Shown here: positions 14,147 to 39,870 of the stretch, piece by piece
Layout: each line of letters starts with the position of its first letter
Numbering within the stretch: the first letter of the stretch is position 1
DNA from: Candidatus Latescibacterota bacterium
Lineage (GTDB): Bacteria; Latescibacterota; UBA2968; UBA8231
Assembly (NCBI GenBank): GCA_965200315.1
Contig: OZ241362.1
Coordinates: 4,224,001-4,288,000, forward strand
Direction: 5' to 3'
Length of the DNA: 64,000 nt
The notes under the pieces: generated by a model
Databases searched by the model: none
Told to the model about the DNA's origin: nothing
Seen by the model: the letters and a program-made list of their open reading frames with translations, nothing else
Made by a program: the position numbers and the translations under genes

Positions 14147-14156
14147 ATAGCCTCCT

Positions 14157-14200
14157 AAAAATTCGGGCAGGCCCCGCATCTAGGCGAGACCTGCCCGGAA
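14157..14200 (-). terminator. Hairpin, probable intrinsic terminator or processing site after the CBM9-like gene
   Basis: CGGGCAGG...CCTGCCCG inverted repeat followed by AATTTTT on the minus strand. Confidence 0.6.
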
Positions 14201-14227
14201 TGGCACTACAATTGAGATGAAAATAGC

Positions 14228-15121
14228 CTAGAACTGGGACTTGATCCGGCCCCAGCTACTCGCCTCGGTGGCTGTGGCCGTGCCCCAGTCGATGCTGGGA
14301 TCGGCCGGAGTCAGCAGCAAGTCTTGGCCAGCGTGGCAGCACTCGATCGGGTTGGTGCTCCACATGCCGATGCGGTTGTCGCCGTCGCCGTCGCCGCCAT
14401 CGACATCGTTGACCGTTGCCGTGACGTGGATAATGCTACCCTCGGTCAGGTCGTGAATTTCTACCTGATCCTCAGTGGCCTCATCCGAGCGCGGCATCCG
14501 CTCGATCGGCAAGATACGGATTTCGTAGGTGTACGTGCTCTCGCCGAACTCTTCGCCCTCGAAGCTGGAGGCGATCTCGACCCACTGCGAGCCGCTGGTC
14601 ATCCAGGGCAGGTTGACGATGGGGCGATACCATTCAAAGGTCTCCTGATAGACCGGAAAGGCGAACTTGTAGCTAAAGCTGGTCGCATCGTCGCCGGGAT
14701 TCAGATCGTCGCGGGCTTGGTGTGCAGCGTTGAGCTCGTACTCGACGCTGTCATCCCAGAAGAATTTGCCCGGGTCTTGACGCTGAGTGATGTGAATGTC
14801 GTCGAAGACGCGGCTGGTGATGTACACGTTGTTGGTCGCATCGTTCCAGCCCATGATGTGGCGGATCTGCATCGAGCTGGCGTCCAGCCCGCCGCGATCG
14901 ACGTTCTCGCCGGCAAAGCCGTGGATCGAGAACAAGGTCTCGCTGAAAATCCCGTACTGCTCAAGGGGCACGGGGGCCCATTCGCCGGCGTCGCCATCGA
15001 TGACGGGCACGTTGGCATCGGGAAAATTCACGGCGACCAACAGCTCACCAGGTGGCTCGTGGGCTTGGGCGGCAACCACAAGGCCCAGCGAGGCTAAGGC
15101 GGTGGTGAGAAACTTTTTCAT
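14228..15121 (-). CDS. Secreted acidic CBM9/DOMON-like sugar-binding protein with C-terminal SWGRIK motif
   Basis: Signal peptide MKKFLTTALASLGLVVAAQA, PVIDGD..EW, GWND..N.VY....V.DD, WDDSVE, VNDVD; GGAGG SD before ATG 15121. Confidence 0.7.
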   Translation of the reverse strand: MKKFLTTALASLGLVVAAQAHEPPGELLVAVNFPDANVPVIDGDAGEWAPVPLEQYGIFSETLFSIHGFAGENVDRGGLDASSMQIRHIMGWNDATNNVYITSRVFDDIHITQRQDPGKFFWDDSVEYELNAAHQARDDLNPGDDATSFSYKFAFPVYQETFEWYRPIVNLPWMTSGSQWVEIASSFEGEEFGESTYTYEIRILPIERMPRSDEATEDQVEIHDLTEGSIIHVTATVNDVDGGDGDGDNRIGMWSTNPIECCHAGQDLLLTPADPSIDWGTATATEASSWGRIKSQF

Positions 15122-15245
15122 GGTAAAAGCTACCTCCACGAGATAGGGGTTAAAAAAGAGAGAAGATGCGGCGACTCGGCCGCCTTCTCGGTTTCGTTAC
15201 GTACAAACGTTCAATATACAAGGCTGCAAAAGAGTACGTCAAGGC

Positions 15246-17858
15246 TTAAATCCCCGCGTAAATGGCGATGAAGGATTGGGTTTCAGTGCGCGAGGAAGCG
15301 TCTTTGAAATTCTTGCGCTCTAGCACCAGTCCGATCACGGTCTGTAGCTTGTAGCCTTGGTAGGCCGATTCGTTTTTGAACTGAACGCCCCAAGTCAGCG
15401 CCGTGAAATCGTTGGCATCCACCTCAAAATCGTCGAAGATCAGGTACTCTAGGCCCGCTTGTAGCTTGGTGATTTCTAGGACATCGGTGACCGCCAACAG
15501 CGAGAAGAGTTCGGCTAGGGTCGTTCGGCGCTCGTCCGTGAACAGGTCGCGGCTCTGCTTGATAAACTCGCTCTTCCAGCGCGGCTCTAAAGAGAGAGGG
15601 CCGAGCGCATGGCGGTAGTGGGCCTTGTTGATCATCCCGAAGAAGAAATCCGTCTCGGCTAAAGCCCAGTGCTGCCGACGCTCGGCGTCCATGAGTTGGT
15701 GAAAGACCACATAGTTGACCTTGTTCTGTAGGTTCAGCGAAAAGGCGTGCACCTTGTGGCCGAGGAAGAGCTGGTTAATCCAAGTGTCGCGGGCCAGCAG
15801 CGGATCGTCGATCTCGGTCAGCGTACCGAGGCGCAGGGTGTTGTCGGGTGCCCACTGCAAGAGCGGGTCGGCGATGTCATCCTCCACGCGCTTGGTCATG
15901 CCGAAGAGGCGCAGATCGCCGCAGCGCGCCCAGCTTTGGTCGTACCTCAGGAGTGCGTACGCGCTGTGGTTTTTCTCGTTGGAAGAGATGCGGTCCTCGC
16001 GCAGGAGGCCGGCGACGACCTTTAGCTGCGGGGTCAAGTAGGTGCCGACGTACGCGTTGTAGCCTTGTCGGTCTCGCTTGTAGGGATAATCCGGCTCTTG
16101 GTCGTTTTCGTATTGGTCCGTCCAGAAGTTGTTGTTCATGTCAACGCCGAAGAGGAATTCGGGCCGATCTACTGCAAAGCGCAGGAAAGGCTCTTCGTAA
16201 TCCGGGATCGAGTTGGTGCGCACTCGGCTGTCGTTTTGGTTGATGTCGGGGACGAAGTCGTTGTTCTGGTCCCAGCCCGGAAAGACTTGGCGATCGGGGA
16301 AGGCCCAGTCGGCGCGGAAGGTGTCTGGCACCCGGTCTTGATCGTCGTTGTCTTCCACGAGGTCCATGAGGCTGCGGTCGTTTTGGTAGTCAATGCTGCC
16401 GTCGTCTTGGGTGACAAATGTTTGGGTGTTGTAGCGCGGGTGCATCTGATAGGCTTCGCCGTAGATGAAGAAGCGGGACCACTGGCGCGACAGATTGAGC
16501 ATATAGGCTGATGCACTGCGCTCGCCGACAATGCCGGCCGAAGTCTGGTGCTCTTCGACGAGGATATTGGGATATTTGCGGTAGTTCCAGTTGAGATCGT
16601 ACTCGCCGTATAGGTCGAAGCCCATTACGTCGCTAACCGTCACCGAACCGCCGAGGATGTGGGTCGCTGTGGGTAGCCCGGCCTCAAAGCTGATGACGCG
16701 CAGATTGGACAAGTCCTTGATATTGCCCGGCGCTTGGGTCATCAGCAGAAACACAGGCTCGCCAGCGCTGGTCTGCTGATCGGAGGTCATCCAGACCTGA
16801 TAGTCGTTGGCTACCACCAGCCGGAATTCCACTTTGACGATCTCGGTTTTGTCGGCCGCAGCTCGGTTGATGAAGCTGGCGCTGTCGAAGTCGTAGCGCA
16901 GGCGGATTTCGTCGTTGCCGTTGGCTTCGATATAGCCCGGCTTGGGCGCGCCGCCTTCCACCACCGGTTCAAAGCGGATATCGCGGCCCGAGTCCACGCG
17001 GCCATCCCGATAGGTGATGAAAATGTCCGATCCAGCCGGAAAATAAGCTGCGCCACCCACGCCATCGTCTGGCGAGTCGTCCCGCAGCGCGATTTCGATA
17101 CGGGAGATAGTCCGGTTCTGGCCTTGGGTCAGCGATCCGGTTATCCAATTGCTTAACAGGGCTTCTTCCGAGAGCGAATTGGCTTGGTGGGCGTTGGCCG
17201 CGTGGATGCCGAGCTCGACGAAATCGCCGATTTGCACCTCAAAGCGCCCGCCGATCAGGGTGGTGGAATTAGTGCGGAGCAATTCTTGATTGGTAATGCC
17301 GCGCGGGGCACTGGCCTGCGCGTAGAGGAATGTGCCCCGGTACTTGTCCATGGCAAAGTCGAACTGCACGCCGTCGAGGCGCGGTTTGGATAGCACCATG
17401 GGCGTCAGGGTGGTGCGCAGGTCGCTGCTAATGGTCAGCGCGTACGCGTATTGTCCTTTTTGTTCGGAGGCCACGGCGACTTCGGAAAACCAGTTGCGGA
17501 AGTGCTGAGCCTCAAACAGTACGGTGCCGAATTCCTCGGGGTTGGCTTGGGATACATTATATATAAGCCAGCCCTGATTGAGGAAGTTGCCAAAGGCGTC
17601 GTAGAAGTAATCTCCTTCGATGCTGGGACTAACATACCGCTGATAGGGAGTACGCGCATAGTTGGTGGCGCTCCACTGCCGCCAGTGGTGTTCGGCGACC
17701 AGCTCTTGAGGCACGTACCAGCGGCGCATCGCCGGGTTGAGGGCCTCCGTGCCTGGGGAAGCCAGCGATGGCAGCCCGATTTGGGCCGCGGCCGAGCTGC
17801 CGCTTACGGCCCATAAAAGCAGGGCGACCTTGCAGATGTGTTTCGCAGTTCCTGCCAT
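15246..17858 (-). CDS. Large exported protein, putative outer-membrane beta-barrel with Asp/Asn-rich loops (paralog of 23972-26641)
   Basis: Signal peptide, alternating aromatic beta-strand patterns, EDNDDQDR.PD / WDQNNDFVPDINQND / DMNNNFW motifs, ends QSFIAIYAGI; ORF is clear, function inferred. Confidence 0.65.
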   Translation of the reverse strand: MAGTAKHICKVALLLWAVSGSSAAAQIGLPSLASPGTEALNPAMRRWYVPQELVAEHHWRQWSATNYARTPYQRYVSPSIEGDYFYDAFGNFLNQGWLIYNVSQANPEEFGTVLFEAQHFRNWFSEVAVASEQKGQYAYALTISSDLRTTLTPMVLSKPRLDGVQFDFAMDKYRGTFLYAQASAPRGITNQELLRTNSTTLIGGRFEVQIGDFVELGIHAANAHQANSLSEEALLSNWITGSLTQGQNRTISRIEIALRDDSPDDGVGGAAYFPAGSDIFITYRDGRVDSGRDIRFEPVVEGGAPKPGYIEANGNDEIRLRYDFDSASFINRAAADKTEIVKVEFRLVVANDYQVWMTSDQQTSAGEPVFLLMTQAPGNIKDLSNLRVISFEAGLPTATHILGGSVTVSDVMGFDLYGEYDLNWNYRKYPNILVEEHQTSAGIVGERSASAYMLNLSRQWSRFFIYGEAYQMHPRYNTQTFVTQDDGSIDYQNDRSLMDLVEDNDDQDRVPDTFRADWAFPDRQVFPGWDQNNDFVPDINQNDSRVRTNSIPDYEEPFLRFAVDRPEFLFGVDMNNNFWTDQYENDQEPDYPYKRDRQGYNAYVGTYLTPQLKVVAGLLREDRISSNEKNHSAYALLRYDQSWARCGDLRLFGMTKRVEDDIADPLLQWAPDNTLRLGTLTEIDDPLLARDTWINQLFLGHKVHAFSLNLQNKVNYVVFHQLMDAERRQHWALAETDFFFGMINKAHYRHALGPLSLEPRWKSEFIKQSRDLFTDERRTTLAELFSLLAVTDVLEITKLQAGLEYLIFDDFEVDANDFTALTWGVQFKNESAYQGYKLQTVIGLVLERKNFKDASSRTETQSFIAIYAGI

Positions 17859-17865
17859 TGCTCAC

Positions 17866-19914
17866 TCAGTAGGCCACAGCTACGGTGCCCGCGGCTGCTG
17901 AAATGCCCTTGTCGGTGGTTAGATCGACTTGGTAGAGGTACACGCCTGGGGCGACTAAGTCTCCCCCGGCGCGACGGCCATCCCAAACCGCGGCAAAACT
18001 GCCGCTGACGGCTGGCGTGGAGATTACCTCGCGCACCAACCGGCCGGACAGGTCGAAAATCCGTAGCGCGATTTGGCGCGGCGCGCCGATATTGCGCAGA
18101 TCGTATGAAATCATGGTCTGATCGTTGATCCCGTCGCCATTGGGCGTCAGCGTCGTGGGGTGCGCGGTGACCTTCCGCACGAGTTCGCCGCCGACGGGCG
18201 TACGCACCGAGAGGGCGTCGCCGGCAAAGCGGAAAGTCGAGTTGCCGGGCCGGACTTGTTGTTTGAGTTCGGGCTCGGTGCTGTCGTACACCCACCCGGT
18301 GAATTCTGCGCCAAAGCGCAGCACCTTGGCGTCGAAGACGACCTCAATGCGGCGCTCGTTGTCGCGCGGCGCGACAAACGGCTCAAAGCTAATGACGATC
18401 CTATCTTCCTCTAATTGGGGCGGAAAGTCGTCGATGATTTCCCGGCCATCGATCGCGACCGAATGCACGGCTTCGGCTGGGACTTGGGTGAAAATTTCCA
18501 GCCGGTCAAAGCCGCGGTCGCCGTCTTCAAGCACGGGCCGCACCACATAGGTGAAGGTCTGCGGCTCGAAGTTTTCAGTCTCAACCGGCCAGATTTCGGC
18601 GATCACGCTTTGGGCCGCGGGGTCTTCGGCAAACAGCAGGGACATTTCGTCGATGCGCGGCGCTTGGTCCCCGTCGGAAAACATGACCACTTCTAGCTGC
18701 AAGTAGCGGCTGGGGCCGGGCGAGAGCAGGGGCGTCCCGTCCTCCCAGCCTGTTGCCTCTGGGTTGCGCCGCCCGGCCGCAAAGTCGTAGGGCGTTGACC
18801 AGAAGCTCCAATTTTCTACGTCGTAGGTCGCTTGGATTTGATTGAACCGACCCACTTGGTACGTGGTGGTGTACTCGTCTTTGGACACCCGCTCAAAGTT
18901 GCCGGTGCTGCCGATTTTCCAAAATAGATTGGGCTGGGGCGTGGTGCCGGTGCGCGAGCGCAACACGAGCCGAGTACCTTGGGGCACCTCGCCCTGCCAG
19001 CGAATTTTGCTCCAAGCCACCGGACGGCCGAAGTCTAGCACGCCCGTGCGATAGGAGGTCTTGGTGACAAAGCCCTCGCCGTACACCTCCATTTCGGCGA
19101 TCTCCCAGGTGCGTTCGGGATTGATCGGGCGAATGCCGACCCAGCGCAAGTCGCGCGTGGGAAAGCGCAAATCCACGACGTAGTCGAGGTTTTCAACGTT
19201 GCGCTCTAGGATGTCGAATTCCGGGTCATTGGTCGAGGTGAGCGAGCGGTTGATGTCATGGTACCAGCGCTTGCCCGGTGCTTTCTCTTGGGGCGAGGAT
19301 ATAAAAGGCGCGGTGTTGTCGGCTACGCCGATTTCGTACCAAGCCAAGTAGTTTTCCTCAAAGCCCGGGCGCGGATAAAAGCGGATGCGGTTGACTGGCA
19401 TCTCGGCTCCCAAATTGACGACCGTGTTTTTCACGTAGCCGATATTGAGGCCAGCTAGGCGCGGCGAGATATCGACTTGGCGCAAGGTCGCCGTTTCCGG
19501 GTCGCCATCGATCATCACTTGGACCTCTTTGGCCGCCTCGCGGGTATAGCCGGTGGAGACACTCGTGAAGAGGTTGCCGCCGCGCGGAGTCAAGTTCACG
19601 TCTAGCGCGAGATTGACGGACGGATCAACCCATATGGGCCGGATGGCGTTGTCATCGTAGGCGATCATGGTATCGACGCCCGCTTCCTCCGCACCGATGG
19701 CGATGGGAAGCGTACCCAAGACCGCGCCTTGGTCGTCGACGATGGTGTACTCGGTCTGCTCATCAGTGATCAGCCCCTGCCAAGAAGTACCCGTCGGGCC
19801 GCCGATGTGGAACTCGGCCCGGCCCCACACCGCGCTGGTACACCAAGCCGCGAGCACTACGTTTAACAACATTCGCTTTAACACGATCTTTTCTCCGTCA
19901 TTACGCCCCATCAC
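17866..19914 (-). CDS. Secreted protein with discoidin-like region and C-terminal FlgD-Ig/CHU_C-like domain
   Basis: Signal peptide, MIDGDPET, NLG...PVNRIRFYPR, EIAEMEVYG, TPNGDGIND, IFDLSGRLVR, WDG, PGVYLYQ, ends VAVAY; exact start uncertain. Confidence 0.75.
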   Translation of the reverse strand: MMGRNDGEKIVLKRMLLNVVLAAWCTSAVWGRAEFHIGGPTGTSWQGLITDEQTEYTIVDDQGAVLGTLPIAIGAEEAGVDTMIAYDDNAIRPIWVDPSVNLALDVNLTPRGGNLFTSVSTGYTREAAKEVQVMIDGDPETATLRQVDISPRLAGLNIGYVKNTVVNLGAEMPVNRIRFYPRPGFEENYLAWYEIGVADNTAPFISSPQEKAPGKRWYHDINRSLTSTNDPEFDILERNVENLDYVVDLRFPTRDLRWVGIRPINPERTWEIAEMEVYGEGFVTKTSYRTGVLDFGRPVAWSKIRWQGEVPQGTRLVLRSRTGTTPQPNLFWKIGSTGNFERVSKDEYTTTYQVGRFNQIQATYDVENWSFWSTPYDFAAGRRNPEATGWEDGTPLLSPGPSRYLQLEVVMFSDGDQAPRIDEMSLLFAEDPAAQSVIAEIWPVETENFEPQTFTYVVRPVLEDGDRGFDRLEIFTQVPAEAVHSVAIDGREIIDDFPPQLEEDRIVISFEPFVAPRDNERRIEVVFDAKVLRFGAEFTGWVYDSTEPELKQQVRPGNSTFRFAGDALSVRTPVGGELVRKVTAHPTTLTPNGDGINDQTMISYDLRNIGAPRQIALRIFDLSGRLVREVISTPAVSGSFAAVWDGRRAGGDLVAPGVYLYQVDLTTDKGISAAAGTVAVAY

Positions 19915-19961
19915 ACGCGGTGAGGGGAGAAATCATGGAAATCACACAAATCCCATAAATC

Positions 19962-22028
19962 CTAGTACGCCACGCCGACGGTGCGCGTGCTGGCGCTAGC
20001 GCGCGCATCGCCTGCGATGTTGAGTTGGATTAGATAGAGGCCAGGAGTCACGTTCTCACCCTGATCATCGGTCCCGTCCCATTGCAATTGGGGCAAGTTT
20101 TCCGAGCTGTACACGCCGCTCTGTCCTTCGATGTCGAAGAGGCGGCGCACCCGGCGTCCCCCTAGGTCGTAAATATTGACCACAATTTGCCCGCCGTCGA
20201 CTGCGAGGACCTCGCATTCCATGTTTAAGATGTCGTTGATTCCGTCGCCATTGGGCGTGATAACGGACGCGGCGAGGTCAAAGCTACCCACGAGGCTGCC
20301 GCTATTGACGGCTGGACTCAAGACGGTAGTGTCCGACTTAAACGAGATGTCGCCTTCGTCTAGTGAGGTGGCATCGCCGGCTTGGACGCTCTGAAAGGCA
20401 TCTTCTTCCAGCAACAATCCCCGGCCCTCAAAGGCCGTGCTGTACGAGAGGATGCGGCTGACGAAGTGGATCTTCAACACGGTGTTGTGCGCGGCCACCC
20501 GCGGGAAGCGCACCGCAAAGCTGCGCTCCGAGATCGCGGTGATGGCCACGTCGCCCTCGTCGACGACTGCGTCTTGCACTGCCAAGTCGTGCGCTAGCAG
20601 GAACTCGCCTTGCGAGTCGATAATTTCAATGCGCTCGATGCGATCTATGCGGCTGCCGGTGACGAGCTCAAAGCTGTCGAAACCCTGCAAATCCCCGCTG
20701 CCCATCTCGGCGCGCACGGCATAGACAAAGGGAATGTCTGCGGCCGCAGGCACCTCGCGTGGAAAGATCTCGCCGACGAGAACATCGGCCAATGGCGGCG
20801 TTGTGAAGTCAAAGGAAAACTGCCGCAGGATTTTGGCCGATTCTAGGGCGTCGGACTGAAAATCAACCCGGAATTGGAAGTAGCGGCGCGGCCCGGGCGA
20901 GAGAACCAACGCGCCCTCGCTGCCAGTGCCCGCGACCGGATCGTAGGGCGAGGTCCACGGACTCCAATTGGCCAAATCGTCGCGCACGGGACCGCGTTCC
21001 CACACATCGGCGGGGCCTCCTTTAGCCGGCAGATCGAGGTACTCGTCGCGCAAGAGCGGCTGGTCGGGATTATCGACTGAGAAGGAGATTTCCTCAGCGT
21101 CTTGCCGCCCCACTCGCTTGCGAGTATAGGCAAACGGCGACGTGTCGCTGCCGCTGCGGGTGCGGATGTTCATCTGCACGGCGCTCGCCTGCCCAACGGT
21201 CTCCTCCAGCCAGCGCAAGCGTCCCCAATTGGCCGGGGTGCCCATGTCGATGAGCGGCGAAATGTACTGCACGGTGGGGAAGAAGCCCTCGCCAAATACT
21301 TGGAATTTCTCGACCTCAAAGGGGATGGATGAGGTGGCGCGCAGGCGAATGAAGCGCAAAAAGCGCGGCGGGTCGATCTCGATGGTGGCGACCGGATCGG
21401 GGTTGTTGGTCCGCACCGCAAAGCTCTCCCATATGGGATTGCCGGCCTCGGTCAACACTTGGCCGTCGTTGACCTGCAACTCGAAGTTTTTGAGAAAATC
21501 CTCTTGAAAGGGCGTCGATGGCGACGGAAAGACCGTATTGCGCGGGAAGAAGCGGATTTGGTTGACGCCAAAGCGCGCGCCCAAATCGAGCACGAGCAAG
21601 GTGCCCAACACGTCCCGTCCCTTGCGCTCGAAGGCCCCGCCAGAGGGATCGGGCGACACGATCTGCTCGAGGATGTTTTGTAGCTGGGACTCGGCGAGGT
21701 CGAAAACGGTCGGGGCGCGGATGCTGCCGCCGCGCTCGGCGATTTCAGCGGCGAGGTTTTGGCCTTCCTGCACCCGGCGGGGGAGGATGCTGCTGGGAAA
21801 ATCCGCGCTAGAAAAATCGACGAGATTGACTGGTGCGACGCCGATTTCGGTGATGTTGGGATCTAGGGTGGAGCGGTACTCCGGCTCGATGGTTTGCACC
21901 GCAGCCCCGGCCTCCACTTCCCCCCTCCAGCTAATCTGGCCGTCTTGGCCGATGAGCAATACTTGACGCCCTTGCGAATCGCTGCTGTGCAAAAGCATCA
22001 TTGCACCTATGAGAAGCAAGTGCTTCAT
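19962..22028 (-). CDS. Secreted protein with discoidin-like region and C-terminal FlgD-Ig/CHU_C-like domain
   Basis: Signal peptide, DLGARFGVNQIRFFPR, SPGPRRYFQ, TPNGDGIND, IYDLGGRRVR, WDG, PGLY, ends VGVAY. Confidence 0.75.
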   Translation of the reverse strand: MKHLLLIGAMMLLHSSDSQGRQVLLIGQDGQISWRGEVEAGAAVQTIEPEYRSTLDPNITEIGVAPVNLVDFSSADFPSSILPRRVQEGQNLAAEIAERGGSIRAPTVFDLAESQLQNILEQIVSPDPSGGAFERKGRDVLGTLLVLDLGARFGVNQIRFFPRNTVFPSPSTPFQEDFLKNFELQVNDGQVLTEAGNPIWESFAVRTNNPDPVATIEIDPPRFLRFIRLRATSSIPFEVEKFQVFGEGFFPTVQYISPLIDMGTPANWGRLRWLEETVGQASAVQMNIRTRSGSDTSPFAYTRKRVGRQDAEEISFSVDNPDQPLLRDEYLDLPAKGGPADVWERGPVRDDLANWSPWTSPYDPVAGTGSEGALVLSPGPRRYFQFRVDFQSDALESAKILRQFSFDFTTPPLADVLVGEIFPREVPAAADIPFVYAVRAEMGSGDLQGFDSFELVTGSRIDRIERIEIIDSQGEFLLAHDLAVQDAVVDEGDVAITAISERSFAVRFPRVAAHNTVLKIHFVSRILSYSTAFEGRGLLLEEDAFQSVQAGDATSLDEGDISFKSDTTVLSPAVNSGSLVGSFDLAASVITPNGDGINDILNMECEVLAVDGGQIVVNIYDLGGRRVRRLFDIEGQSGVYSSENLPQLQWDGTDDQGENVTPGLYLIQLNIAGDARASASTRTVGVAY

Positions 22029-23968: not shown

Positions 23969-23971
23969 TCG

Positions 23972-26641
23972 CTATTCCAATCCTGCGTAGATCGTTATAA
24001 AGGTCTGACTCGTGTACCGCGCCTTGACTTCTTTGAAATCTTCGCGCTCGATGCGCAGCCCGGCTAAGGCGTGGAGGCTGTAACCCAAGTACTGAGACTG
24101 ATTGGTAAACTGAAACGCGCCAGTAATGGAGTTGAAGTCGTTGGCATCGACGTCGAAGTCGTTAAAAATCAGGTACTCGACGCCCGCTTGGAGCCGAGTG
24201 GCTCGCAGGACGCGAGTTTCGACGACAGCCGAAAATAGTTCGTAGAGGCTGGTGGAATGCTCTAGGGTGAAGAGGCTGCGCGACTGCTTGCGGAACTCGC
24301 TCTTCCAGCGCGGCTCCAAGCTCAGCCGGCCCAAGGAATAGCGGTAGCTGGCCTTGTTAATTACCCCAAAGAAGAAGTCCTGTTCGTCTAGTTCTAGGGC
24401 CTGCCGGCGGGTTTCGCTCATTAGCTGGCGGAAGCGCACGTAGTTGACCTTGGTCTGTACGCGATAGGAGGCCGACTGCAAGTTGTGGCCCACAAAGAAC
24501 TGGTTGATCCAAGTGTCGCGGGCCAACAAGGGATCTTCGACCTTGGTCAACTCGCCGCCGCGCAGGGTGTTGTCCGGTGCCCACTGCAAGAGGGGGTTGG
24601 GGATGTCGTCCTCTACCAATTTGCTCATTTCAAAGAAGCGCAAGCGCCCAAAGCGCGGGGAGTTGTTGTCGTACGTCACGAGGGCGTAGGTGCTCTTGTT
24701 TTGCTGGTTTGAGGAGATGAGTTCCTCGCGCAGCGCACCGACCATCACCTTGAGTTGCGGCGTCAGGTCGGCACCGCCGTACACATTGTAACCACGATGG
24801 TCGCGGCGGTAGGGGTAGTCTGGCTCTTCGTCGTTTTCGTACTGGTCGATCCAGAAGTTGTTGTTCATGTCCATTCCGAAGAGGAATTCCGGGCGGTCGG
24901 AATGGAAGCGGAGAAAAGGCTCTTCGTAGTCGGGCACGGCATTGGAGCGCACGAAGTTGTCGTTTTGGTTGATGTCAGGTACGAAGTCGTTGTTTTGGTC
25001 CCAGCCTGGGAAGACTTGGGAATCGCCCTGGAGCCAGTCGAAGCGCACGGTGTCGGGAAATCGGTCTTGGTCGTCGTTGTCTTCGACGAGCTCGACGATA
25101 CCTTCGCGCTCGCTGTCGTAGCGGATCTCGCCCGTGCCCGTGGTGACAAAGGTCCGCGTGTTGTAGAGCGGATCCATGCTGTACGCCTCGCCGAAGACAA
25201 AGAAAGGAGCGGCCTTTTTGGATGCGTTCACCATCCAAGCCGGTGCCCGGCGGCGACCGCCGATGCCGGATGCCGTGTGGTGCTCGTCGCGCAGGACGTT
25301 GGGGTACTTGCGGTAGCTTAGGCTCAGGTCGTATTCGGCGTATAGGTCGAAGCCCTTGTAGTCGCGCAGTTCGATGTTGCCGCCGAAGATGTGGGTCGCC
25401 GTCGGCAGGCCGTACTCGAAGCGGACGGTCTGCAAATTGGTGATGTCTTGCACGTTGCCGTCGGCTTGGGCCACGAGCAGTAGCACGGCTTCTCCGTCGC
25501 GGTTGACTTGGCGGTCGGACGTCATCCAGACCTGATAGTCGTTGCCCAGCACCAGCCGGAACTCGACTTTGACGATGTCCTCTTTGGGAAACGAGGCCCG
25601 ATCGACAAAGGCCGGGCTGTCGAAGTCGTAGCTAAGGCGTATTTCCTCCGGGCCATTGGCGGCGATGTAGCCCTGCTGGATAAAGCCGCCCTCGATGACC
25701 GGCTCGAATTGGATGTCTTTGCCGGCATCGACAGTCCCGTCCTCGTAGGTAATTAGCACGTCCGAGCCGGCCTGAAAGAAGGCTGCCCCACCCGTTCCGT
25801 CGCCTGGAGAATCGTCGCGCAGGACGATCTGAATCAGCGACACGGTCTTGTTTTGGGCCACGGTCAAAGCGCCGGAAAACGGGTTGCCCACTAGACGGTC
25901 TGAAAGCGTGTTCGACTGGTGGGCGTTGACCGCGTGCAGGCCCAATTGCAAGGCGTCGCTGAGCTGGTAGGCGAAGCGCCCGCCAAAGAGCGTGGTGTTG
26001 TTGGTGCGGAGTACTTCTTGGTCTTCAGTTGTTGAGCCGCCTGGATTGCTCAAGCGCGAATAGATGAGCGTCCCTTCGTAGCGGTCGGTGGCGAGGTCGA
26101 ACTGTACGCCGTCCATGCGCGGCTTGGAAAAGACCATCGGCGAGATCACCGAGCGCATCTGTGCGCTCGTCGTCAGGGTGTAGAAGTATTGGCCCTTGGC
26201 GTCTGAGGCGATGACCACGTCGGAAAACCACTGTTGGAAGCGATTGGACTTGAGCAGCGAGTTGCCGAACTGCTGGGGCTTGCTCTGCGAGTTGTTGAAG
26301 ATCAGCCAGCCACGGGTGAGGAAATTGCCGTACAGATCGTAAAAGTAGTCGCCTTCGAGGCTAATATCGACGTAGCGCTGATAGGGGTTGCGGGCGTAGT
26401 TGGTGTACTGCCACTGACGCCACTGGTACTCTTTGTAGAGCTCCTGCGGCACGTACCAGCGGCGCACCGCGGGGTCGAGGACGCCGAGCATGACGTCCGG
26501 CCCTTGGGGCGCAAAAGAGGTTTCGTCGCCTTGTTGCAGCCCGAGGCGCGAGCTGTAATCGACTTGGCCGGCCGCCTCTTGGGCTGCTCCGGCAGCGACG
26601 AGTAGCAAAACGAGGCTTATTCTACTAGTAACAGTGTGCAT
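23972..26641 (-). CDS. Large exported protein, putative outer-membrane beta-barrel with Asp/Asn-rich loops (paralog of 15246-17858)
   Basis: Start placed at ATG 26641 (GGGAG SD, signal peptide MHTVTSRISLVLLLVAAGAA), 889 aa; long blocks shared with paralog (GWDQNNDFVPDINQND, PDYEEPFLRF, LLQWAPDNTLR, LEPRWKSEF). Confidence 0.65.
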   Translation of the reverse strand: MHTVTSRISLVLLLVAAGAAQEAAGQVDYSSRLGLQQGDETSFAPQGPDVMLGVLDPAVRRWYVPQELYKEYQWRQWQYTNYARNPYQRYVDISLEGDYFYDLYGNFLTRGWLIFNNSQSKPQQFGNSLLKSNRFQQWFSDVVIASDAKGQYFYTLTTSAQMRSVISPMVFSKPRMDGVQFDLATDRYEGTLIYSRLSNPGGSTTEDQEVLRTNNTTLFGGRFAYQLSDALQLGLHAVNAHQSNTLSDRLVGNPFSGALTVAQNKTVSLIQIVLRDDSPGDGTGGAAFFQAGSDVLITYEDGTVDAGKDIQFEPVIEGGFIQQGYIAANGPEEIRLSYDFDSPAFVDRASFPKEDIVKVEFRLVLGNDYQVWMTSDRQVNRDGEAVLLLVAQADGNVQDITNLQTVRFEYGLPTATHIFGGNIELRDYKGFDLYAEYDLSLSYRKYPNVLRDEHHTASGIGGRRRAPAWMVNASKKAAPFFVFGEAYSMDPLYNTRTFVTTGTGEIRYDSEREGIVELVEDNDDQDRFPDTVRFDWLQGDSQVFPGWDQNNDFVPDINQNDNFVRSNAVPDYEEPFLRFHSDRPEFLFGMDMNNNFWIDQYENDEEPDYPYRRDHRGYNVYGGADLTPQLKVMVGALREELISSNQQNKSTYALVTYDNNSPRFGRLRFFEMSKLVEDDIPNPLLQWAPDNTLRGGELTKVEDPLLARDTWINQFFVGHNLQSASYRVQTKVNYVRFRQLMSETRRQALELDEQDFFFGVINKASYRYSLGRLSLEPRWKSEFRKQSRSLFTLEHSTSLYELFSAVVETRVLRATRLQAGVEYLIFNDFDVDANDFNSITGAFQFTNQSQYLGYSLHALAGLRIEREDFKEVKARYTSQTFITIYAGLE

Positions 26642-26649
26642 GGTGCTCC

Positions 26650-29600
26650 CTAATAGGCTACCGCGATAAGGTGGGATTGCCGTTGTCCGGCGCTGTCTTC
26701 GGCGTCGGTGTCCACGTCGATCTGGCAGATGTAGAGCCCGGGTGGCACGACGCGGCCGTGGTCGTCCTTGCCGTCCCAAGTAAAGCGCTGGTGCCCGCCT
26801 TGGGCCGTGCCTTCTAGCAGGCGCATGGGCCGGCCGTCGAGTGCCCAAATGCGGACGGCAGCCGGTCGCTCGGCATAGACCTTGAACAGCGAGAACTCGA
26901 TTTGGGCCACGTCGTTTACGAGGTCGCCGTTGGGCGTGAAGGGATTGGGCGCGACCGAGATGTCGGCGACGATCTGCACGGCACCGAGCGCGGCGATCGA
27001 CAGGGTTTGCGAGGGGCGCAGCGCGGTGGCGTCAGCGGCGTCGGCGGGCTGATAGGGCGTGTCGGCCGCTTGGTTGCGCACCGCCACCTTTAGCTTGGTG
27101 CCGTGGAGAAATACCTTGGCCGCAAAGCGCAGGCGCACGAGTTGGCCGTGGCCGACGACCCATCCTCTGGCACGGCCTAGCCGGCCGTACTGGGCCGCGC
27201 TGAGCGTGTCGCCGGCCTCGTCGAAAAGCGTCTGGGTCCCCAAACCTACGACCTTGCGGAAGTAGCGCACGGGCCCTTGGGATTCGGGCGGCAGCTCGTC
27301 GTAGGCCGCTTGATCCACTTCCACTAGCTCCTCTCCGGCAATGCGGAAGTAGCGCACCGCGCCGCGTACCGCGTCTGAGAGCAGGGCATGCGAAGTCGCC
27401 GTCAGGAGCTGGCCGTCGATGCTGGTGGGCACTTCCTCGCCATCGGCTGCCGTGCGGAAGTATAGCTGCGGTAGTTCGTCGGTGTCGCTGAGGGCAACTT
27501 CCGGGAGGCGCACTAGGAGCGAGTCGCCTTGCAGCATCTGGCCGTCGGTGCTTGCCAAGTCCAAGAGCGATTGCGGTGCTCCAGATGCAAACTGTTCCTC
27601 GGTGCCTATTGCCACATCGATAAGCTGCATGTCGAGGCCCGGATCGGCGCTGATGAGCATCTCGTCGAACCCGAGGCTGCGGACCGAAGTGGGCCGCTCT
27701 AAGAACTGAGGTTGGACGAAGACCTCGAAGGTGTCCAGAACCCCCACTTGGGCCTCGGGCGGCCAGACTTCGGCTCGCAGTCCGAGAGCGACGGGAGTGT
27801 GTAGCTCTACGGAGATGCGCTCTAGCGCTGGTGCAATATGGCGGTCTTCGCTGAGCAGGCGGGCCTGGATTTGCATGAACTTGCGCAGGCTGGGCGACGT
27901 TACTTGGTCGCCGGGTTGCTGGTACTGCTGGCTCCAAGCACTCCAGCCTGGGCCTATTGCGAAGGACGTGTCGATTGGCCCTTTGAGGAAGGCGAGGAGT
28001 TTCTTGTGCTCGGCCGCGGTCTTTTCGATGCCATTGCTGTCGTAGAAGCGTATCTGCTGGATGAGTTGGTCGCCGGTGCGGGTGCGAATCTCGACCTTGG
28101 TGCCCGGAGGCGTGTCGGCCTTCCAGTCGATACTGCCCAAGGTCAACAGCCGAGGCAACTCAATCAGATCGGATTGCAGTTCGATTTCCGCGGGTACACC
28201 TTCGGCAAACAGCATGAGTTCGTTGAACTGAGGCCAGAAGCGGTCGGTGCGGTTTTGGGTGTCGCCGATGAAATTGGCCAAGGTCAACAGGTCGAGGAAG
28301 CGCACCTTGCGCACGGGGTTTTGCACATCGTTGAGGTAGCCAAAGAATCCGTGATCGACGTTGGTTACTCGCTCCGGCGGGGTGATGGTGCGCCAGCGCA
28401 GCTTGCCTTGGGCGTCGCGTTCCCCGGTGGACGACCGCATCTGATAGCCGCGGATATTACTACCAGTGACGCGGATTTGGTCCAGCCACACCGTACCGCC
28501 GATGTCGATGGTCAGCACGTTGGCACCTGGGTCGAGGGGGTCTCGGGTGGGTTGCTGATAACGGCTGCTGATATCCCCGTCGAAAGCCGGGGACGGCGTC
28601 TTGCCGGCCGAGGTCAGATTCAAAGTGCCGCCCCCTCCGACTAGGCCGAGGCTGATGTTGTCTCCCCACCCCCACACTTCGACCTCGGCTAGGCGCGGCA
28701 ATTCTCGGCGATAGAATTCTCGCCGTCCGCGGCGCTCCTCCTCCAAGGACTCGTAGGTCTCGGCGTCCACCGGCTCTTCGCGGCCGGCGAAGTCGCGCAC
28801 GAAGTGGACGATGTCGCCGCGTTCATGCGCGGGCAACGCCTCCCATGCGGCTTGGTCGATCTGCTCGGCCCGCCCGCCGCGTGTGTCGGTAATTACGATG
28901 CGGATGGTTTCGATGACCTTGCCGGTCCAAGCCGGGTCGGCACTGCTTTGGTGCAGTTTCTTGACACTGCTGATCCCGCCGGCGGAAACTACGAGGCCGG
29001 GGTTGACCGGGGGCGCAAGGGTTGCTCCCCCAGTTGCGGCGGCACTTTCAAAGAAGAAGGCGCGCTGCTCGGTATTGGGGCCTTCGTGGGGGACGAACAG
29101 CTCAAAGCTAACCTTGCGATCATCGGTAAGCGATAGTGTCTGGTTCCGGGCCAAGAGGAGGAGGTACTTGAAGAACGGATCGCCCAGCCCTTCTTCGACG
29201 AAGCGCACGGAAATGCCCTCCACGGGCACGGCGCGGCCCAGATCGACCTCGACCCACCACTGCTCGATGGGGTCGGCTGGGTCGGGCTCCCAGAAGGTAG
29301 TGGGATCGCCATCTACGATGCGGGCCGCCATCTCGATGTTGGAGCCTGCGCGGCTGACCCCGGGGCGCACGATATAGTCGTACACGAATTTTTTCTGGGC
29401 GTCTTGGATGGGTTGGCCGAGCACATCTACTTTCAGGGTGCTATCCACATTGAGGATGCGCGGGGCTTTGTTGGTGATTACGACCGGACGGGCGATGCTG
29501 GGATCGGCGAGGACGTTGTAAATCGAGCGCAGGTGGCGCGGACGCACCGCGCCCGAGGGGTCGATAGTGGTCAGGTGTTCGGGTTTTTTCCAGTGCTCCC

Positions 29601-29721
29601 AGTGGCTGCGCCCGGTGACGACGATGCGGTCGTCCACGATGTCGTACCCTTGCTGTGCGCTGGCTGGCAGCCACGCCCCCAACAGGCAGTACGCGATGGC
29701 ACCCCATTTTATTTTTGCCAC
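26650..29721 (-). CDS. Large secreted protein with F5/8-type-C (discoidin)-like domains and C-terminal FlgD-Ig/CHU_C-like domain
   Basis: Signal peptide, IVDGDPTTFW...WVEVDLGR, AFDGD, PNPFTPNGDLVND, WDGKD, PGLY, ends IAVAY. Confidence 0.78.
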   Translation of the reverse strand: MAKIKWGAIAYCLLGAWLPASAQQGYDIVDDRIVVTGRSHWEHWKKPEHLTTIDPSGAVRPRHLRSIYNVLADPSIARPVVITNKAPRILNVDSTLKVDVLGQPIQDAQKKFVYDYIVRPGVSRAGSNIEMAARIVDGDPTTFWEPDPADPIEQWWVEVDLGRAVPVEGISVRFVEEGLGDPFFKYLLLLARNQTLSLTDDRKVSFELFVPHEGPNTEQRAFFFESAAATGGATLAPPVNPGLVVSAGGISSVKKLHQSSADPAWTGKVIETIRIVITDTRGGRAEQIDQAAWEALPAHERGDIVHFVRDFAGREEPVDAETYESLEEERRGRREFYRRELPRLAEVEVWGWGDNISLGLVGGGGTLNLTSAGKTPSPAFDGDISSRYQQPTRDPLDPGANVLTIDIGGTVWLDQIRVTGSNIRGYQMRSSTGERDAQGKLRWRTITPPERVTNVDHGFFGYLNDVQNPVRKVRFLDLLTLANFIGDTQNRTDRFWPQFNELMLFAEGVPAEIELQSDLIELPRLLTLGSIDWKADTPPGTKVEIRTRTGDQLIQQIRFYDSNGIEKTAAEHKKLLAFLKGPIDTSFAIGPGWSAWSQQYQQPGDQVTSPSLRKFMQIQARLLSEDRHIAPALERISVELHTPVALGLRAEVWPPEAQVGVLDTFEVFVQPQFLERPTSVRSLGFDEMLISADPGLDMQLIDVAIGTEEQFASGAPQSLLDLASTDGQMLQGDSLLVRLPEVALSDTDELPQLYFRTAADGEEVPTSIDGQLLTATSHALLSDAVRGAVRYFRIAGEELVEVDQAAYDELPPESQGPVRYFRKVVGLGTQTLFDEAGDTLSAAQYGRLGRARGWVVGHGQLVRLRFAAKVFLHGTKLKVAVRNQAADTPYQPADAADATALRPSQTLSIAALGAVQIVADISVAPNPFTPNGDLVNDVAQIEFSLFKVYAERPAAVRIWALDGRPMRLLEGTAQGGHQRFTWDGKDDHGRVVPPGLYICQIDVDTDAEDSAGQRQSHLIAVAY

Positions 29722-29733
29722 GATGGCACCTCC

Positions 29734-31338
29734 TTACAGGCGCTCGGCGAACAAGGCGACTTGGCTTTCGCGCTCGGCGCGCAGGCGTTGGATGAGCGCG
29801 TCCATGAGCGCGTCCCGACGCCTTGCTTCCAAGATGCCCCGCGCTCGCGCTCGCGCTTGGGCAAAAGGTTGGATGTCGCCGCCTTCTTTCTGGCGTACCC
29901 GGAATACGGCAAATTGGTCTAGCACCGCCACTGGCCCACCCCATTCGCCGATCTCTGCGGCAAAGGCCGCATCTACAAGCTGAGGATAGCGCGCCCGCAC
30001 CACCTTGCGCAGGCGCAGTGCTCCGTCGTCGTGCGGGTCGCCGTGGGTTTCGACGCTTGGCCGGGCCAACAGCTCGGCGACGCTGCTGCCGTTTGCGAGG
30101 GCGTCGCGCAACGCTTGGGCCTGCTCGCGGGTGGGCGCGAGGAGCTGGTTGATGTGGACGGATTCAGCCGTGCGGAAGCGCGTCTTGTTGGCCTCGTAGT
30201 ACGCGGCGACTTCCTCTTCGCTGGGGATGGCCTTTGTCGCTGTTTCTGCCTTGGTGAGCTGCTGCAAAACGAGAGCTTTGCGCTTGCGCTCGCGCCACTC
30301 GGCGAATTCGGCCTCTCGATCCCATCCGCGCTGCTGGGCGCCCGCGGTCATCAGATAGGCTGGCAAGAGCGCGGCATGGGCTAGCGAGACGACTTGGGCG
30401 CTGTCTTGCAACGCGCCCCGGAAGCCGACGGCGCGCAGGTCGTGGAGGCATTCGCCCAAGGAAATCGCTCCGCCGTCAAAGCGGTAGAGCGGAAGCGCGG
30501 CGAGCGAATCGGAGAGATTCGGCGCGGCGAGCAAGGCTTGTAGGCCCTCGTGATTCAACTGGAGATTCAAGGAGCGGCTCAAGGTTTCCACTTCGATTTG
30601 CCGGCGGCTCTGCCACTTTTCGCGGTGCGCCGCGCTGGCGGCTTCTTCGGCGTAGTCGGCCTTGTCGGCTGTTCGGTCTTCGACAAAGCGGTAAATCTGC
30701 CAGCCGCCCGCCAGTGCCAGCGGCTCGGCGATTTGGCCGACCGGGAGGGAGAGGAATATCTGCGGCGGAATGGCGAGGCGCTGCGCTTGGGTGCGCCCGA
30801 TCCAACCGACGACTCCGTCGCCCTGTGGGGCGAAAAGGTCGTTGGCCGCAAAGCGCTGCGCTAGTTCGGCAAAAGGCTGGCCCTCGTGCAGTGCCCGCAA
30901 CACGCGGTCCACGTCTTGTTGCTGCCGCACCAGAATTCGCGCCAAGAGCCGCTCGCGGTCAAAGCCCATATCGACGAAGGTGCGCTCGATTTCCTCGGGT
31001 GTTACCGCGACTTGGGGAGCGAGCACTTCGGCTTGGTAGCGCTGGGAGAGCTGCTTGCGGACGAGGGCGTTTAGCTGGTAGCGGACCTCGTTGCTTTGCT
31101 CGATTCCCCTAGCGCGGGCCTCTTGTAGCAGCAGTTCCTGATCGACGAAGGACTGTAGGTAGTCGCGTGCGTCCTCGCTTTGCAAGCCGGGCGGCAAGCG
31201 CTCGACAAAGCGCAGGTACTCGGCTTTGGTGAGAGCCACGTCGCCGACTTGGGCCACGACTGGGTCGTCTGGTGTGCAGCCAAACAGGGCCAAGAGGGCG
31301 ACAGCGCACCCGAGGGAGCGGAAAGTAGCGAAAAACAT
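29734..31338 (-). CDS. PpiC/parvulin-type peptidyl-prolyl isomerase lipoprotein (SurA/PrsA-like, two parvulin-like domains)
   Basis: Lipobox LFGC after ATG 31338, VVAQVG, ELLLQEA..RGI, ARILV....G.PFAELA, EEVAAYYEANK..F. Confidence 0.85.
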   Translation of the reverse strand: MFFATFRSLGCAVALLALFGCTPDDPVVAQVGDVALTKAEYLRFVERLPPGLQSEDARDYLQSFVDQELLLQEARARGIEQSNEVRYQLNALVRKQLSQRYQAEVLAPQVAVTPEEIERTFVDMGFDRERLLARILVRQQQDVDRVLRALHEGQPFAELAQRFAANDLFAPQGDGVVGWIGRTQAQRLAIPPQIFLSLPVGQIAEPLALAGGWQIYRFVEDRTADKADYAEEAASAAHREKWQSRRQIEVETLSRSLNLQLNHEGLQALLAAPNLSDSLAALPLYRFDGGAISLGECLHDLRAVGFRGALQDSAQVVSLAHAALLPAYLMTAGAQQRGWDREAEFAEWRERKRKALVLQQLTKAETATKAIPSEEEVAAYYEANKTRFRTAESVHINQLLAPTREQAQALRDALANGSSVAELLARPSVETHGDPHDDGALRLRKVVRARYPQLVDAAFAAEIGEWGGPVAVLDQFAVFRVRQKEGGDIQPFAQARARARGILEARRRDALMDALIQRLRAERESQVALFAERL

Positions 31339-31557
31339 GCTGCTTGATTTAAGCAACGGCTCGGCGAGTGTCAAGTTTTTGCCCCTGCAACTAACTATAT
31401 GTAATTTTGCTTTTTAGATACTATTTCTCGTCCTTCCGCTCAGTACATGACCCCACGATCTTAGCTGGGAGCGTGGACGTTTCGCCTGCCTCAAGACGGC
31501 GGAGAAAACGCGTCTTCAGTAAGGCGAACCCACTCTCATTAATAGGGAATTGACCTA

Positions 31558-31982
31558 ATGAAATTTTTGCTTGGCAGCCTCATCGGCTTCGTGTTGAGCA
31601 TGAGTGTCGGCGCGGAGCCACTGCTTGAGGGCTGGGCGCGGCTGTCGTCTGGGGCTATGGGCTGACCGCTTCGGGTCAAGGTTTGGTCGCGTATGTGGAC
31701 CCGGCCTTTCGGGTGGGGATGAGTACGGCTTCTATCGTGGTTGAACCCGCTGCCGGTGCGCCGCGGATGAAGCTTGCGGCGGGCGGCGTCTTGGGTGATG
31801 TGAACAACGATGGCCGGGTCAATAGTGCCGACGCGGTGCTCCTCATCCTATACCTCAGTGATCCATTCGATCCCACGTTGCCGTTGCAGCTCGGACGGAC
31901 CGAGGTGTCGTTAGGGAGTTCGATAGCGGCTTCATTACCGGTAGGGGCCGTGGAACTGTATGTAATTCTTGGCTTTATTTGA
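31558..31982 (+). pseudogene. Internally deleted remnant of a secreted dockerin-containing protein
   Basis: MKFLLGSLIGFVLSMSVGAEPLLEGWARLSSG signal stub (31558-31665) joined out of frame to YGLTASGQGLVAYVDPAF...LGDVNNDGRVNSADA (dockerin-like repeat). Confidence 0.65.
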
Positions 31983-32019
31983 TTAGACGCCATCCCATAA
32001 ACCCTGCGTACCGCCCGCC

Positions 32020-33966: not shown

Positions 33967-34151
33967 GGAGTGGTCTATGAGGAATGGAGTGGCAGGTGCG
34001 CAGTGAAGTGGCAAACGTAGCCAAATTCGCAGATACCCGTCAATAAATGGCCGGCCCCGCGACAAGGGATGGCGGCGATCTGGTTGCTGTCGGCGGGAAA
34101 AAGCCGCTAACTATCTGGGTATCTGGTGACCTTTTTCATAGACGAGGAGAT

Positions 34152-39800: not shown

Positions 39801-39870
39801 ACGCCAATTTCCCGTAAATAGTGGGACTAGGAAAGTGGGCGCTGACTCAGCGGTACGCAACTCCGGGACT

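Follow-up and report, generated by a model that had tools for sequence, protein, structure and literature searches.

The window analysed here is a stretch of 64,000 nt from contig OZ241362.1 (assembly GCA_965200315.1) of a Candidatus Latescibacterota bacterium. Between positions 14228 and 31338, it carries eight tightly packed, co-oriented genes on the minus strand, with spacing that ranges from a 4-nt overlap to a gap of about 106 nt. On the basis of sequence comparison, this region is one copy of a conserved, multi-copy Latescibacterota cell-envelope cassette. An earlier reading made from the letters only (hereafter the sequence-only reading) had described eight closely spaced, co-oriented genes here, and all eight were confirmed. 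In order of transcription (P, A1, B1, G, A2, A3, B2, X), they are:

29734-31338, minus strand: P, a SurA/PrsA-like peptidyl-prolyl isomerase (PPIase; Rotamase_2), probable lipoprotein
26650-29721, minus strand: A1, a secreted protein of 1023 aa that carries a discoidin (F5/8 type C) domain and ends in a CHU_C/FlgD_ig-like domain (Pfam)
23972-26641, minus strand: B1, an 889-aa predicted giant outer-membrane beta-barrel in position 1, followed by G
22025-23968, minus strand: G, an N-terminal GT-C-like (PMT_2) multi-pass domain followed by C-terminal tetratricopeptide repeats (TPR; Pfam)
19962-22028, minus strand: A2, a secreted protein of 688 aa, composed of several beta-sandwiches, whose C-terminal domain is of the CHU_C type (Pfam)
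17866-19914, minus strand: A3, a secreted protein of 682 aa, composed of several beta-sandwiches, whose C-terminal domain is of the CHU_C type (Pfam, structural model)
15246-17858, minus strand: B2, an 870-aa predicted giant outer-membrane beta-barrel in position 2, followed by X
14228-15139, minus strand: X, a secreted protein of about 300 aa, possibly CBM9/DOMON-like, with a probable start (MKKF..) at 15121

The longest open reading frame (ORF) of B1 extends to 26848, and the 889-aa form begins with MHTVTSR. Scans with Rfam and for tRNAs returned nothing inside the cassette region. Across 14200-34190, promoter and terminator sites were no more numerous than in shuffled sequence and no clear internal terminator was found. 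A 133-aa ORF at 31676-32077 was rejected as a gene, given its Arg/Ser-rich composition and lack of a Pfam family.

To determine how far this gene order is conserved, GTDB representative genomes were scanned for B, which gave at least 633 matching stretches, at least 475 of them confirmed by tblastn. The best 80 of the confirmed stretches provided 74 loci from 37 assemblies, each ending at ±10 kb or at a contig end. ORFs in these loci were called with a simple longest-ORF rule and labelled by BLASTP against the window proteins; gene class counts per locus are lower bounds, and the survey includes many orthologous loci. Among 99 complete B genes (at least 800 aa), 96 had an upstream neighbour, which for 82 of these 96 was a same-strand A gene, the median A-to-B gap being 10 nt. 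The remaining 14 upstream neighbours were eight unlabelled same-strand ORFs, four X genes, one P gene and one gene on the opposite strand, some of them being ORF-calling artefacts. After B was clustered at 80% identity, A was upstream in 29 of 35 clusters. Directly downstream of B lay either G (53/97) or X (32/97), together 85 of 97. A and B were each labelled in 72 of the 74 loci, G in 64, X in 56, P in 29 and D (a polytopic membrane protein described below) in 17. The recurrent order was P-A-B-G-A-A-(B)-X, in which the first A protein is about 1000-1100 aa long, the second B is optional and D is often also present. In one clade, a single B occurs and its two short A genes are often divergent, and in loci L071-L074 the order is rearranged while the gene set is unchanged. 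Hence, the A-then-B order and the whole cassette are kept across paralogous loci and across genomes, as the neighbourhood survey proposed with the sequence-only reading was meant to establish. The further statement that the A-then-B module occurs twice holds for the window and its related clade, while many paralogous cassettes have a single B.

The cassette is present in several copies per chromosome. Among the 74 loci, at least six were on OZ244561.1 and at least four each on OZ242361.1, OZ247580.1 and OZ220690.1. A tree of B (FastTree, LG model, midpoint root) covered B1, B2 and the 97 B proteins from the loci whose length was 800-1000 aa; ORFs outside this range were left out. The X-followed (position 2) genes essentially form one clade, apart from the G-followed genes, and B1 groups with the latter. 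This topology would point to an old, stable duplication. With respect to taxonomy, 62 of the 74 loci carried Latescibacter* labels, 10 Gemmatimonad* labels, one was labelled Woeseia and one 'uncultured bacterium'. Cassettes on contigs labelled Gemmatimonadota or Gemmatimonadetes (L010, L012, L035, L054, L068 and others) and on the Woeseia contig (L038) were up to 94% identical to those on Latescibacterota chromosomes, which probably reflects label or bin disagreement rather than a cassette shared between phyla. In L007, L014 and L003, whose cassettes are otherwise orthologous, foreign genes separate the two short A genes. These were a TdeIII-type restriction endonuclease and a DNA methylase in L007 (6214-7937) and at the same position in L014, and four ORFs without informative families in L003 (3569-7941). 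Apparent long fusions, among them a 'B' of 1508 aa (L025) and an 'A' of 1448 aa (L065), were rejected as over-extended or merged ORF calls of the simple caller.

The two B proteins of the window are paralogues (62% identity over 836 aa) and, by sequence inspection, bear signal peptides. Neither has a Pfam or NCBIfam match at E ≤ 0.01, and searches of PDB sequences with B profiles built from 36 and 69 sequences gave nothing meaningful, including no SlpA. A word-indexed search with B2 retrieved 363 proteins at E ≤ 0.001 among 8000 scored candidates. All of the 120 matches listed were at least 51% identical and none had a precomputed Pfam domain; the few with names were 'hypothetical protein' entries from Latescibacteria or Gemmatimonadota metagenome-assembled genomes. 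An exhaustive search with the 36-sequence profile reached 940 representative clusters at E ≤ 0.001 (307 at E ≤ 1e-30), among them full-length relatives, 860-1050 aa long, at about 25% identity. Compared with the Atlas, B2 matched only unnamed clusters labelled Gemmatimonadota or Latescibacterota, and the nearest Pfam-bearing cluster (DUF6029, score 0.89) is a lead only. Known outer-membrane signatures were likewise missing from B1 and B2, which had no PorP_SprF or type IX secretion system (T9SS) NCBIfam match and no Usher, POTRA or TpsB signature. The same Pfam library detected Plug and TonB_dep_Rec in the true receptor of the window (53801-56197) but not in B. More broadly, Plug, TonB_dep_Rec and SusD were unmatched in every cassette protein, in agreement with the sequence-only reading, which had seen neither a TonB plug nor SusD.

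The AlphaFold model of B2 (pLDDT 66.6, pTM 0.64, residues 18-153 under 50) is made up of long antiparallel hairpins (approximately 98-227, 387-472 and 597-869), with a beta-sandwich inserted at 253-375 and low-confidence Asp/Asn-rich loops at 500-595. About 24-28 barrel strands were counted from the DSSP string, closure of the barrel being predicted rather than seen in coordinates. The model ends in barrel strands and has no long helix beyond the signal peptide. A Foldseek search of the PDB with this model returned 149 matches at E ≤ 0.001, and the top ones listed were outer-membrane barrels. The best was SlpA of Deinococcus (7zgx, E 1.4e-9), then 8agd and 8ae1, and further matches included MtrB (6r2q_B, 5.3e-9), LptD, the FimD/PapC ushers and TonB-dependent receptors. 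All TM-scores were about 0.2. An alignment of 36 B sequences contains invariant Asp/Asn clusters, and the conserved Asp/Asn-rich loops of B1 and B2 look, from their sequence, like Ca2+-binding loops. Taken together, B is predicted from structural modelling to be an uncurated family of large outer-membrane beta-barrels, which bears out the suggestion that the proteins of about 880 aa are an uncharacterized outer-membrane family.

Any relationship of B to SlpA would be remote. B1 and B2 themselves have no SlpA_C (PF21620) match in Pfam. SlpA_C was found below threshold in 10 of 24 distant B relatives, with a best E of 2e-7 (30.2 bits against a cut-off of 35) and matches that span just 70-100 or so profile positions. 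A sister subfamily (P0168, P0270-P0388) comprises barrels of about 950-1000 aa that are about 25% identical to B and highly paralogous, with at least 14 members listed on a single 5.87-Mb contig. A precomputed PF21620 flag was present in 41 of the 120 members listed for P0168, at a threshold that must lie below gathering level because P0168 itself scores 30.2 bits. The novelty ascribed to B in the sequence-only reading therefore stands in that no Pfam, NCBIfam or PDB sequence match exists for it, and is qualified by SlpA as the top structural match and by the sub-threshold SlpA_C of the sister subfamily.

The A proteins share a common architecture. A2 and A3 align along their entire length with 26% identity (E 1e-47), A3 matches A1 (E 8e-18), and both short proteins are related to A1. 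In A1, which has a signal-peptide-like N terminus, F5_F8_type_C scores 30.4 bits (cut-off 28.2). CHU_C is above its cut-off of 27 in A2 (29.0 bits) and A3 (35.2 bits), and A3 also matches FlgD_ig (26.4 bits). At E ≤ 0.01, CHU_C was found in all 29 members of the A2/A3-type family, FlgD_ig in 28 and F5_F8_type_C in two, while the A1-type family (n = 27) had CHU_C in 26, FlgD_ig in 22 and F5_F8_type_C in 25. The tail carries the motif TPNGDG(I/V)ND...VAVAY with a near-invariant C-terminal ..VAY (..IAVAY in A1, ..VGVAY in A2, ..VAVAY in A3), and Tyr was the last residue in at least 162 of 173 A ORFs. Consistent with the earlier description of these domains as type B-like, some homologues among the 353 proteins retrieved with the A3 tail (from 1060 candidates) are named 'gliding motility-associated C-terminal domain-containing protein' or 'FlgD immunoglobulin-like domain containing protein'. 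TIGR04131 (NCBIfam) had no match on A1 or A2. Searched against the PDB, A profiles matched with their last 90 or so residues only, to FlgD, C5a peptidase Fn domains and PorU. The AlphaFold model of A3 (pLDDT 82.5) is an all-beta chain of sandwich domains with no enzyme fold, and its Foldseek matches were generic multi-sandwich proteins only (alpha-2-macroglobulin, galactose oxidase, PorU and C5a peptidase). By sequence and model, A1-A3 are Sec-exported, non-catalytic beta-sandwich chains, and the discoidin domain of the A1 type is lectin-like and predicted to bind sugar.

A second kind of C-terminal domain was observed near these genes. An 895-aa protein at 41874-44561 (plus strand) combines CotH kinase, lamin-tail and FlgD_ig domains and has an NYPNPFN-type tail ending in ..LVK, similar to a type A C-terminal domain; no B-family gene neighbours it. 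In the flank of another Latescibacterota locus (L062:585-2540), a protein with PAD_porph and Por_Secre_tail (37 bits) likewise has no adjoining B. Both kinds of C-terminal domain thus coexist in these genomes, a pattern that, judged from sequence, mirrors the type A/type B split. Because FlgD_ig and Por_Secre_tail proteins also occur without a B neighbour, the C-terminal domain is probably a general sorting signal. These same two proteins weaken the idea of a dedicated pathway, which had been one of the two functions originally offered for the cassette.

The other cassette members are more variable. P scores 71.7 bits for Rotamase_2 and 27.6 for Rotamase, with weak NCBIfam PPIase matches, and has a single N-terminal hydrophobic segment followed by a lipobox-like ..ALLALFGC|TPDD. 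The strict lipobox pattern was present in 18 of 29 members of the family, and visual inspection showed a Cys behind the hydrophobic stretch in further members; P is a probable lipoprotein PPIase on this sequence evidence. G matches TPR families at up to 84 bits and PMT_2 marginally (26.4 bits against 26.1), with eight hydrophobic segments between residues 69 and 349. TPR were found in all 24 members of the G family and PMT_2 in 15 (best E 2e-12), three being TPR-only. Some cassettes have in the G position a protein that contains TPR only, is 311-355 aa long and bears a lipoprotein-like signal, so the constant part of G would be a tethered periplasmic TPR and not the GT-C domain. The label 'CBM9-like' (carbohydrate-binding module family 9) given earlier to X is weak, since the window copy is without a Pfam match and, in its family, 8 of 23 members matched CBM9_1 (PF06452) at E ≤ 1 (best 3.7e-6). 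The X profile retrieved nothing from PDB sequences.

Three further features flank the eight genes:

32020-34065, minus strand: D, a polytopic inner-membrane protein with DUF6785 and DUF6784 (Pfam), a probable accessory gene 5' of P
13280-14179, minus strand: a PhyH-family dioxygenase (PhyH, E 6.2e-39), linked to the cassette only in the window's clade
10135-13270, minus strand: a carbohydrate-type ATP-binding cassette (ABC) importer (SBP_bac_1 and BPD_transp_1 twice), linked to the cassette only in the window's clade

D matches DUF6785 (E 1.8e-116) and DUF6784 (E 2e-28) and has at least 10 hydrophobic segments; the real start codon probably lies further in than the TTG with which the ORF opens. 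It adjoins P or A in L017, L045, L069, L071 and L042. No paper mentioning DUF6785 was found within the limited literature searched. The importer consists of a binding protein (11978-13270; SBP_bac_1, E 2.6e-36) and permeases at about 11037-11978 and 10135-11070, with weak MalE/UgpA/UgpE-like NCBIfam matches. In the survey, homologues of PhyH were present in 15 loci, of the permeases in 15 and 14 and of the binding protein in 14, as lower bounds. Those 14-15 loci out of 74 are the only ones in which the cassette is linked to the importer and PhyH, a link that was part of the initial interpretation, and each of them falls in the clade of the window or in the sister clade. In the flanks, 260 ORFs of 150 aa or more carried no label; they formed 149 clusters, and all 149 representatives were scanned against Pfam, with no PorP_SprF and no recurrent carbohydrate-active enzyme (CAZyme) found. 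Most frequent among these additional genes were ABC exporters and FG-GAP/UnbV_ASPIC/TPR proteins, the latter as 14 ORFs from 11 loci. Sugar-catabolism genes were scattered, namely GH2-like and MR_MLE in four loci each, GH42, GH20b, BNR, sulfatase and UxuA. In these scans, no glycoside hydrolase was a regular member of the cassette, which speaks against the glycan-uptake locus envisaged at first.

We propose that the A proteins have their cognate outer-membrane partner in B, which would be an analogue but not a homologue of PorP/SprF; we hold this reading to be plausible and a little short of probable. The A proteins would pass the outer membrane, using a T9SS provided that the organism possesses one, and would stay on the cell surface because the cognate B barrel grips their uncleaved C-terminal domain, an anchoring step modelled on SprB/SprF and PG1035/PorP of Bacteroidota. 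P may help the folding or periplasmic transit of A or B, G may scaffold the complex and possibly glycosylate it, and X would be an additional secreted subunit. The product would be a glycan-binding surface lectin-barrel complex, to which the sugar ABC importer may be coupled in the window's clade. In favour of this reading are the A-B gene pairing, its recurrence in paralogous cassettes, the CHU_C type of the A tails, the coexistence of two kinds of C-terminal domain, the barrel prediction for B and the published arrangement in Bacteroidota. The separate clade of X-followed genes in the B tree agrees with it as well and is what would be expected if each B serves particular neighbours. The phrase 'analogous but non-homologous' in the sequence-only reading fits these observations, in that B lacks a PorP/SprF signature and PorP-like proteins are described as 14-stranded barrels of the FadL family in the available part of PMC9143113.

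Several points weigh against this assignment. Gene order is what carries the analogy with PorP/SprF, because B has no sequence similarity to these proteins and about twice their strand number. Single-B cassettes have three A genes, so that pairing is not one-to-one, and shared ancestry of neighbours would give the same tree pattern without physical contact. The survey itself was anchored on B and covered A genes in its vicinity, those away from B being outside its scope. Among the C-terminal domains, CHU_C of A1 (17.3 bits) is under the gathering score of 27 and TIGR04131 of A3 (22.4 bits) is under the cut-off of 35. The B model is of moderate confidence (overall pLDDT, the poorly modelled residues 18-153 and the TM-scores given above). 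No T9SS machinery was found in the 64-kb window or in the flanks of the 74 loci, whole genomes not having been searched.

A different function for the same parts would be TonB-independent glycan capture and uptake, in which B is the channel, A and X are surface glycan binders and the ABC importer carries the sugar inward, analogous to SusCD. We place this on the unlikely side, as a minority possibility. The discoidin domain in 25 of 27 A1-type proteins and CBM9_1 in 8 of 23 X proteins agree with it, as do several divergent cassettes per genome, reminiscent of polysaccharide utilization loci (PULs), and a modelled barrel wide enough for a channel. In the clade of the window and in the sister clade, with B identity as low as about 58%, the importer comes directly after the cassette, and scattered sugar-catabolism genes flank other cassettes. 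However, about 59 of the 74 loci lack the importer, the cassette contains no recurring CAZyme family, and neither a TonB box, a plug nor any other energising element was detected with Pfam. To our knowledge, known uptake loci do not feature a PPIase or a GT-C/TPR protein. The acidic loops and the inserted domain of B may also fill the pore, as reported for SlpA in the available part of PMC9388160. The same likeness to SlpA raises the possibility of a structural coat, which we consider unlikely, with B as an abundant SlpA-like barrel, the A proteins as glycosylated Ig-rich surface-layer proteins and the paralogues as alternative coats. SlpA structures lead the Foldseek matches (7zgx, 8agd and 8ae1), SlpA_C and the PF21620 flag occur in distant relatives and the sister subfamily at the frequencies given above, and the GT-C domain of G could, from its sequence, glycosylate a coat protein. 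SlpA also has pore insertions with Asp-coordinated metal sites (PMC9388160, available part), and B has an inserted domain and Asp/Asn clusters. Yet B has neither the SLH domain nor the coiled coil that define the tether function of SlpA, B1 and B2 have no SlpA_C match, PDB searches with both B profiles did not return SlpA, and the GT-C domain is absent from some cassettes.

If B were itself the translocon for A, usher-like or two-partner-like and independent of T9SS, P would act as the chaperone. The cassette carries its own periplasmic PPIase, and the beta-sandwich of B is inserted mid-sequence after the first barrel strands, a position resembling that of the plug in the PapC and FimD ushers. 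FimD and PapC were among the Foldseek matches (E 5e-6 to 1e-5), and the A C terminus (..VAVAY) is strand-like with a terminal aromatic residue. The PPIase and the mid-barrel insertion lend weak support because they are generic similarities. No Usher, POTRA or TpsB signature was found, usher matches were no better than those to LptD or TonB-dependent receptors (TM about 0.2), and B lacks the C-terminal periplasmic domains of ushers, its model ending in barrel strands. In addition, CHU_C and Por_Secre_tail are T9SS signals according to their Pfam descriptions and also occur on proteins with no B neighbour. Export by B thus appears quite unlikely to us. A further explanation, that these are co-inherited but functionally separate envelope genes that form no A-B complex, is supported by the relatedness of the loci by descent, such that conserved order alone is no proof of interaction. 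Nevertheless, the order persists where B is only about 50% and A 35-45% identical, the gene set survives rearrangement in L071-L074, and the A-to-B gap is about 10 nt, making simple co-inheritance very improbable. A doubtful but more far-reaching version combines display and capture in a self-contained, T9SS-free machine: a SlpA-like barrel would both export lectin-type proteins and hold them by their CHU_C-like tail, with its own lipoprotein PPIase and TPR scaffold, in many substrate-specific copies per genome. Were this true, the cassette would be the Latescibacterota counterpart of a PUL without TonB or SusCD.

The cell surface of Latescibacterota, an uncultured and widespread phylum, is unexplored, and the B family, embedded throughout in this one cassette, provides a concrete target for structural and proteomic work. 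Should B anchor CHU_C-tailed proteins, type B anchoring would not be tied to PorP-family barrels and T9SS-style surface display would reach beyond Bacteroidota. Should B be a channel, it would represent a new TonB-independent route of glycan capture. A remote relation to SlpA would tie a Deinococcus-Thermus envelope protein to the Fibrobacterota-Chlorobiota-Bacteroidota (FCB) group.

Outside the cassette, the window contains other features. A thiamine pyrophosphate (TPP) riboswitch (RF00059, 67.9 bits) lies directly 5' of the TonB-dependent receptor gene at 53801-56197 (plus strand), which is followed by a thiamin pyrophosphokinase gene (56202-56867, plus strand); the region 53660-56867 looks like a riboswitch-controlled operon for thiamine uptake and salvage. 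Six PhyH genes occur within 64 kb (8679-9533, 13280-14179, 38103-38873, 39024-39860, 44887-45705 and 49710-50546), an unusual local expansion, and PhyH homologues also flank related loci. On the minus strand, a ResIII helicase (2409-5003) and an N6_N4 DNA methylase (5008-6627) form a type III-like restriction-modification pair that sits between ABC exporter genes (631-2409 and 6829-8574, minus strand); the exporter genes are seemingly adjacent in the related loci L006-L008. An LptE-like gene at 37542-38054 (minus strand; PF04390, 28.5 bits) is consistent with a diderm envelope containing lipopolysaccharide.

Several known systems resemble the cassette in part. Barrels of the PorP/SprF type are roughly 300-400 aa long, whereas B measures about 880 aa, is predicted to have about 24-28 strands and does not match PorP_SprF. 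In Bacteroidota, type B cargo such as SprB and PG1035 retains its C-terminal domain and is anchored by an adjacent PorP-like barrel (SprF or PorP), PorP-like proteins are 14-stranded FadL-family barrels, and six porP-like genes adjoin TPR-containing porE-like genes, according to the available part of PMC9143113. Similar to SprB-SprF of Flavobacterium johnsoniae and PG1035-PorP-PorE of Porphyromonas gingivalis, a CHU_C-tailed gene lies directly 5' of a barrel gene in the cassette, and as in PorP-PorE (same source), the gene for a TPR envelope protein follows the barrel gene, giving the order A-B-G(TPR). A second, NYPNPFN-type C-terminal domain is also present in the genome of the cassette, as in T9SS genomes. 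Compared with PorP loci, additional parts of the cassette are a PPIase lipoprotein, a GT-C domain, X and, in many cases, D. No report of T9SS in Latescibacterota was found within the limited literature searched.

SusC/SusD PULs similarly have several divergent copies of a barrel plus surface binders per genome, sometimes near genes for sugar transport or catabolism, but the cassette has no Plug, TonB-dependent receptor, SusD or regular CAZyme, and its binders are C-terminal-domain proteins and not lipoproteins. Like the cassette, chaperone-usher systems combine a barrel about 850 aa long, interrupted mid-sequence by a beta-sandwich, with a folding factor for the periplasm and secreted subunits that are Ig-like. 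In contrast, the cassette has no Usher or PapD-type families, B lacks C-terminal periplasmic domains, and the folding factor is a parvulin-type PPIase. We know of no slpA gene described in a context of C-terminal-domain proteins, PPIase and TPR. SlpA combines an SLH domain, a coiled coil and a 30-stranded barrel whose pore insertions hold Asp-coordinated metal sites (available part of PMC9388160). Like SlpA (PF21620; 7zgx, 8ae1 and 8agd), B is modelled as a very large single-chain barrel with insertions and acidic, metal-site-like loops; unlike SlpA, it has no SLH domain, coiled-coil stalk or SlpA_C match. Given these likenesses and differences, the cassette is best filed as a variation on the theme of type B cargo plus cognate barrel, one whose giant barrel is unrelated and SlpA-like and which brings folding and scaffold genes of its own.

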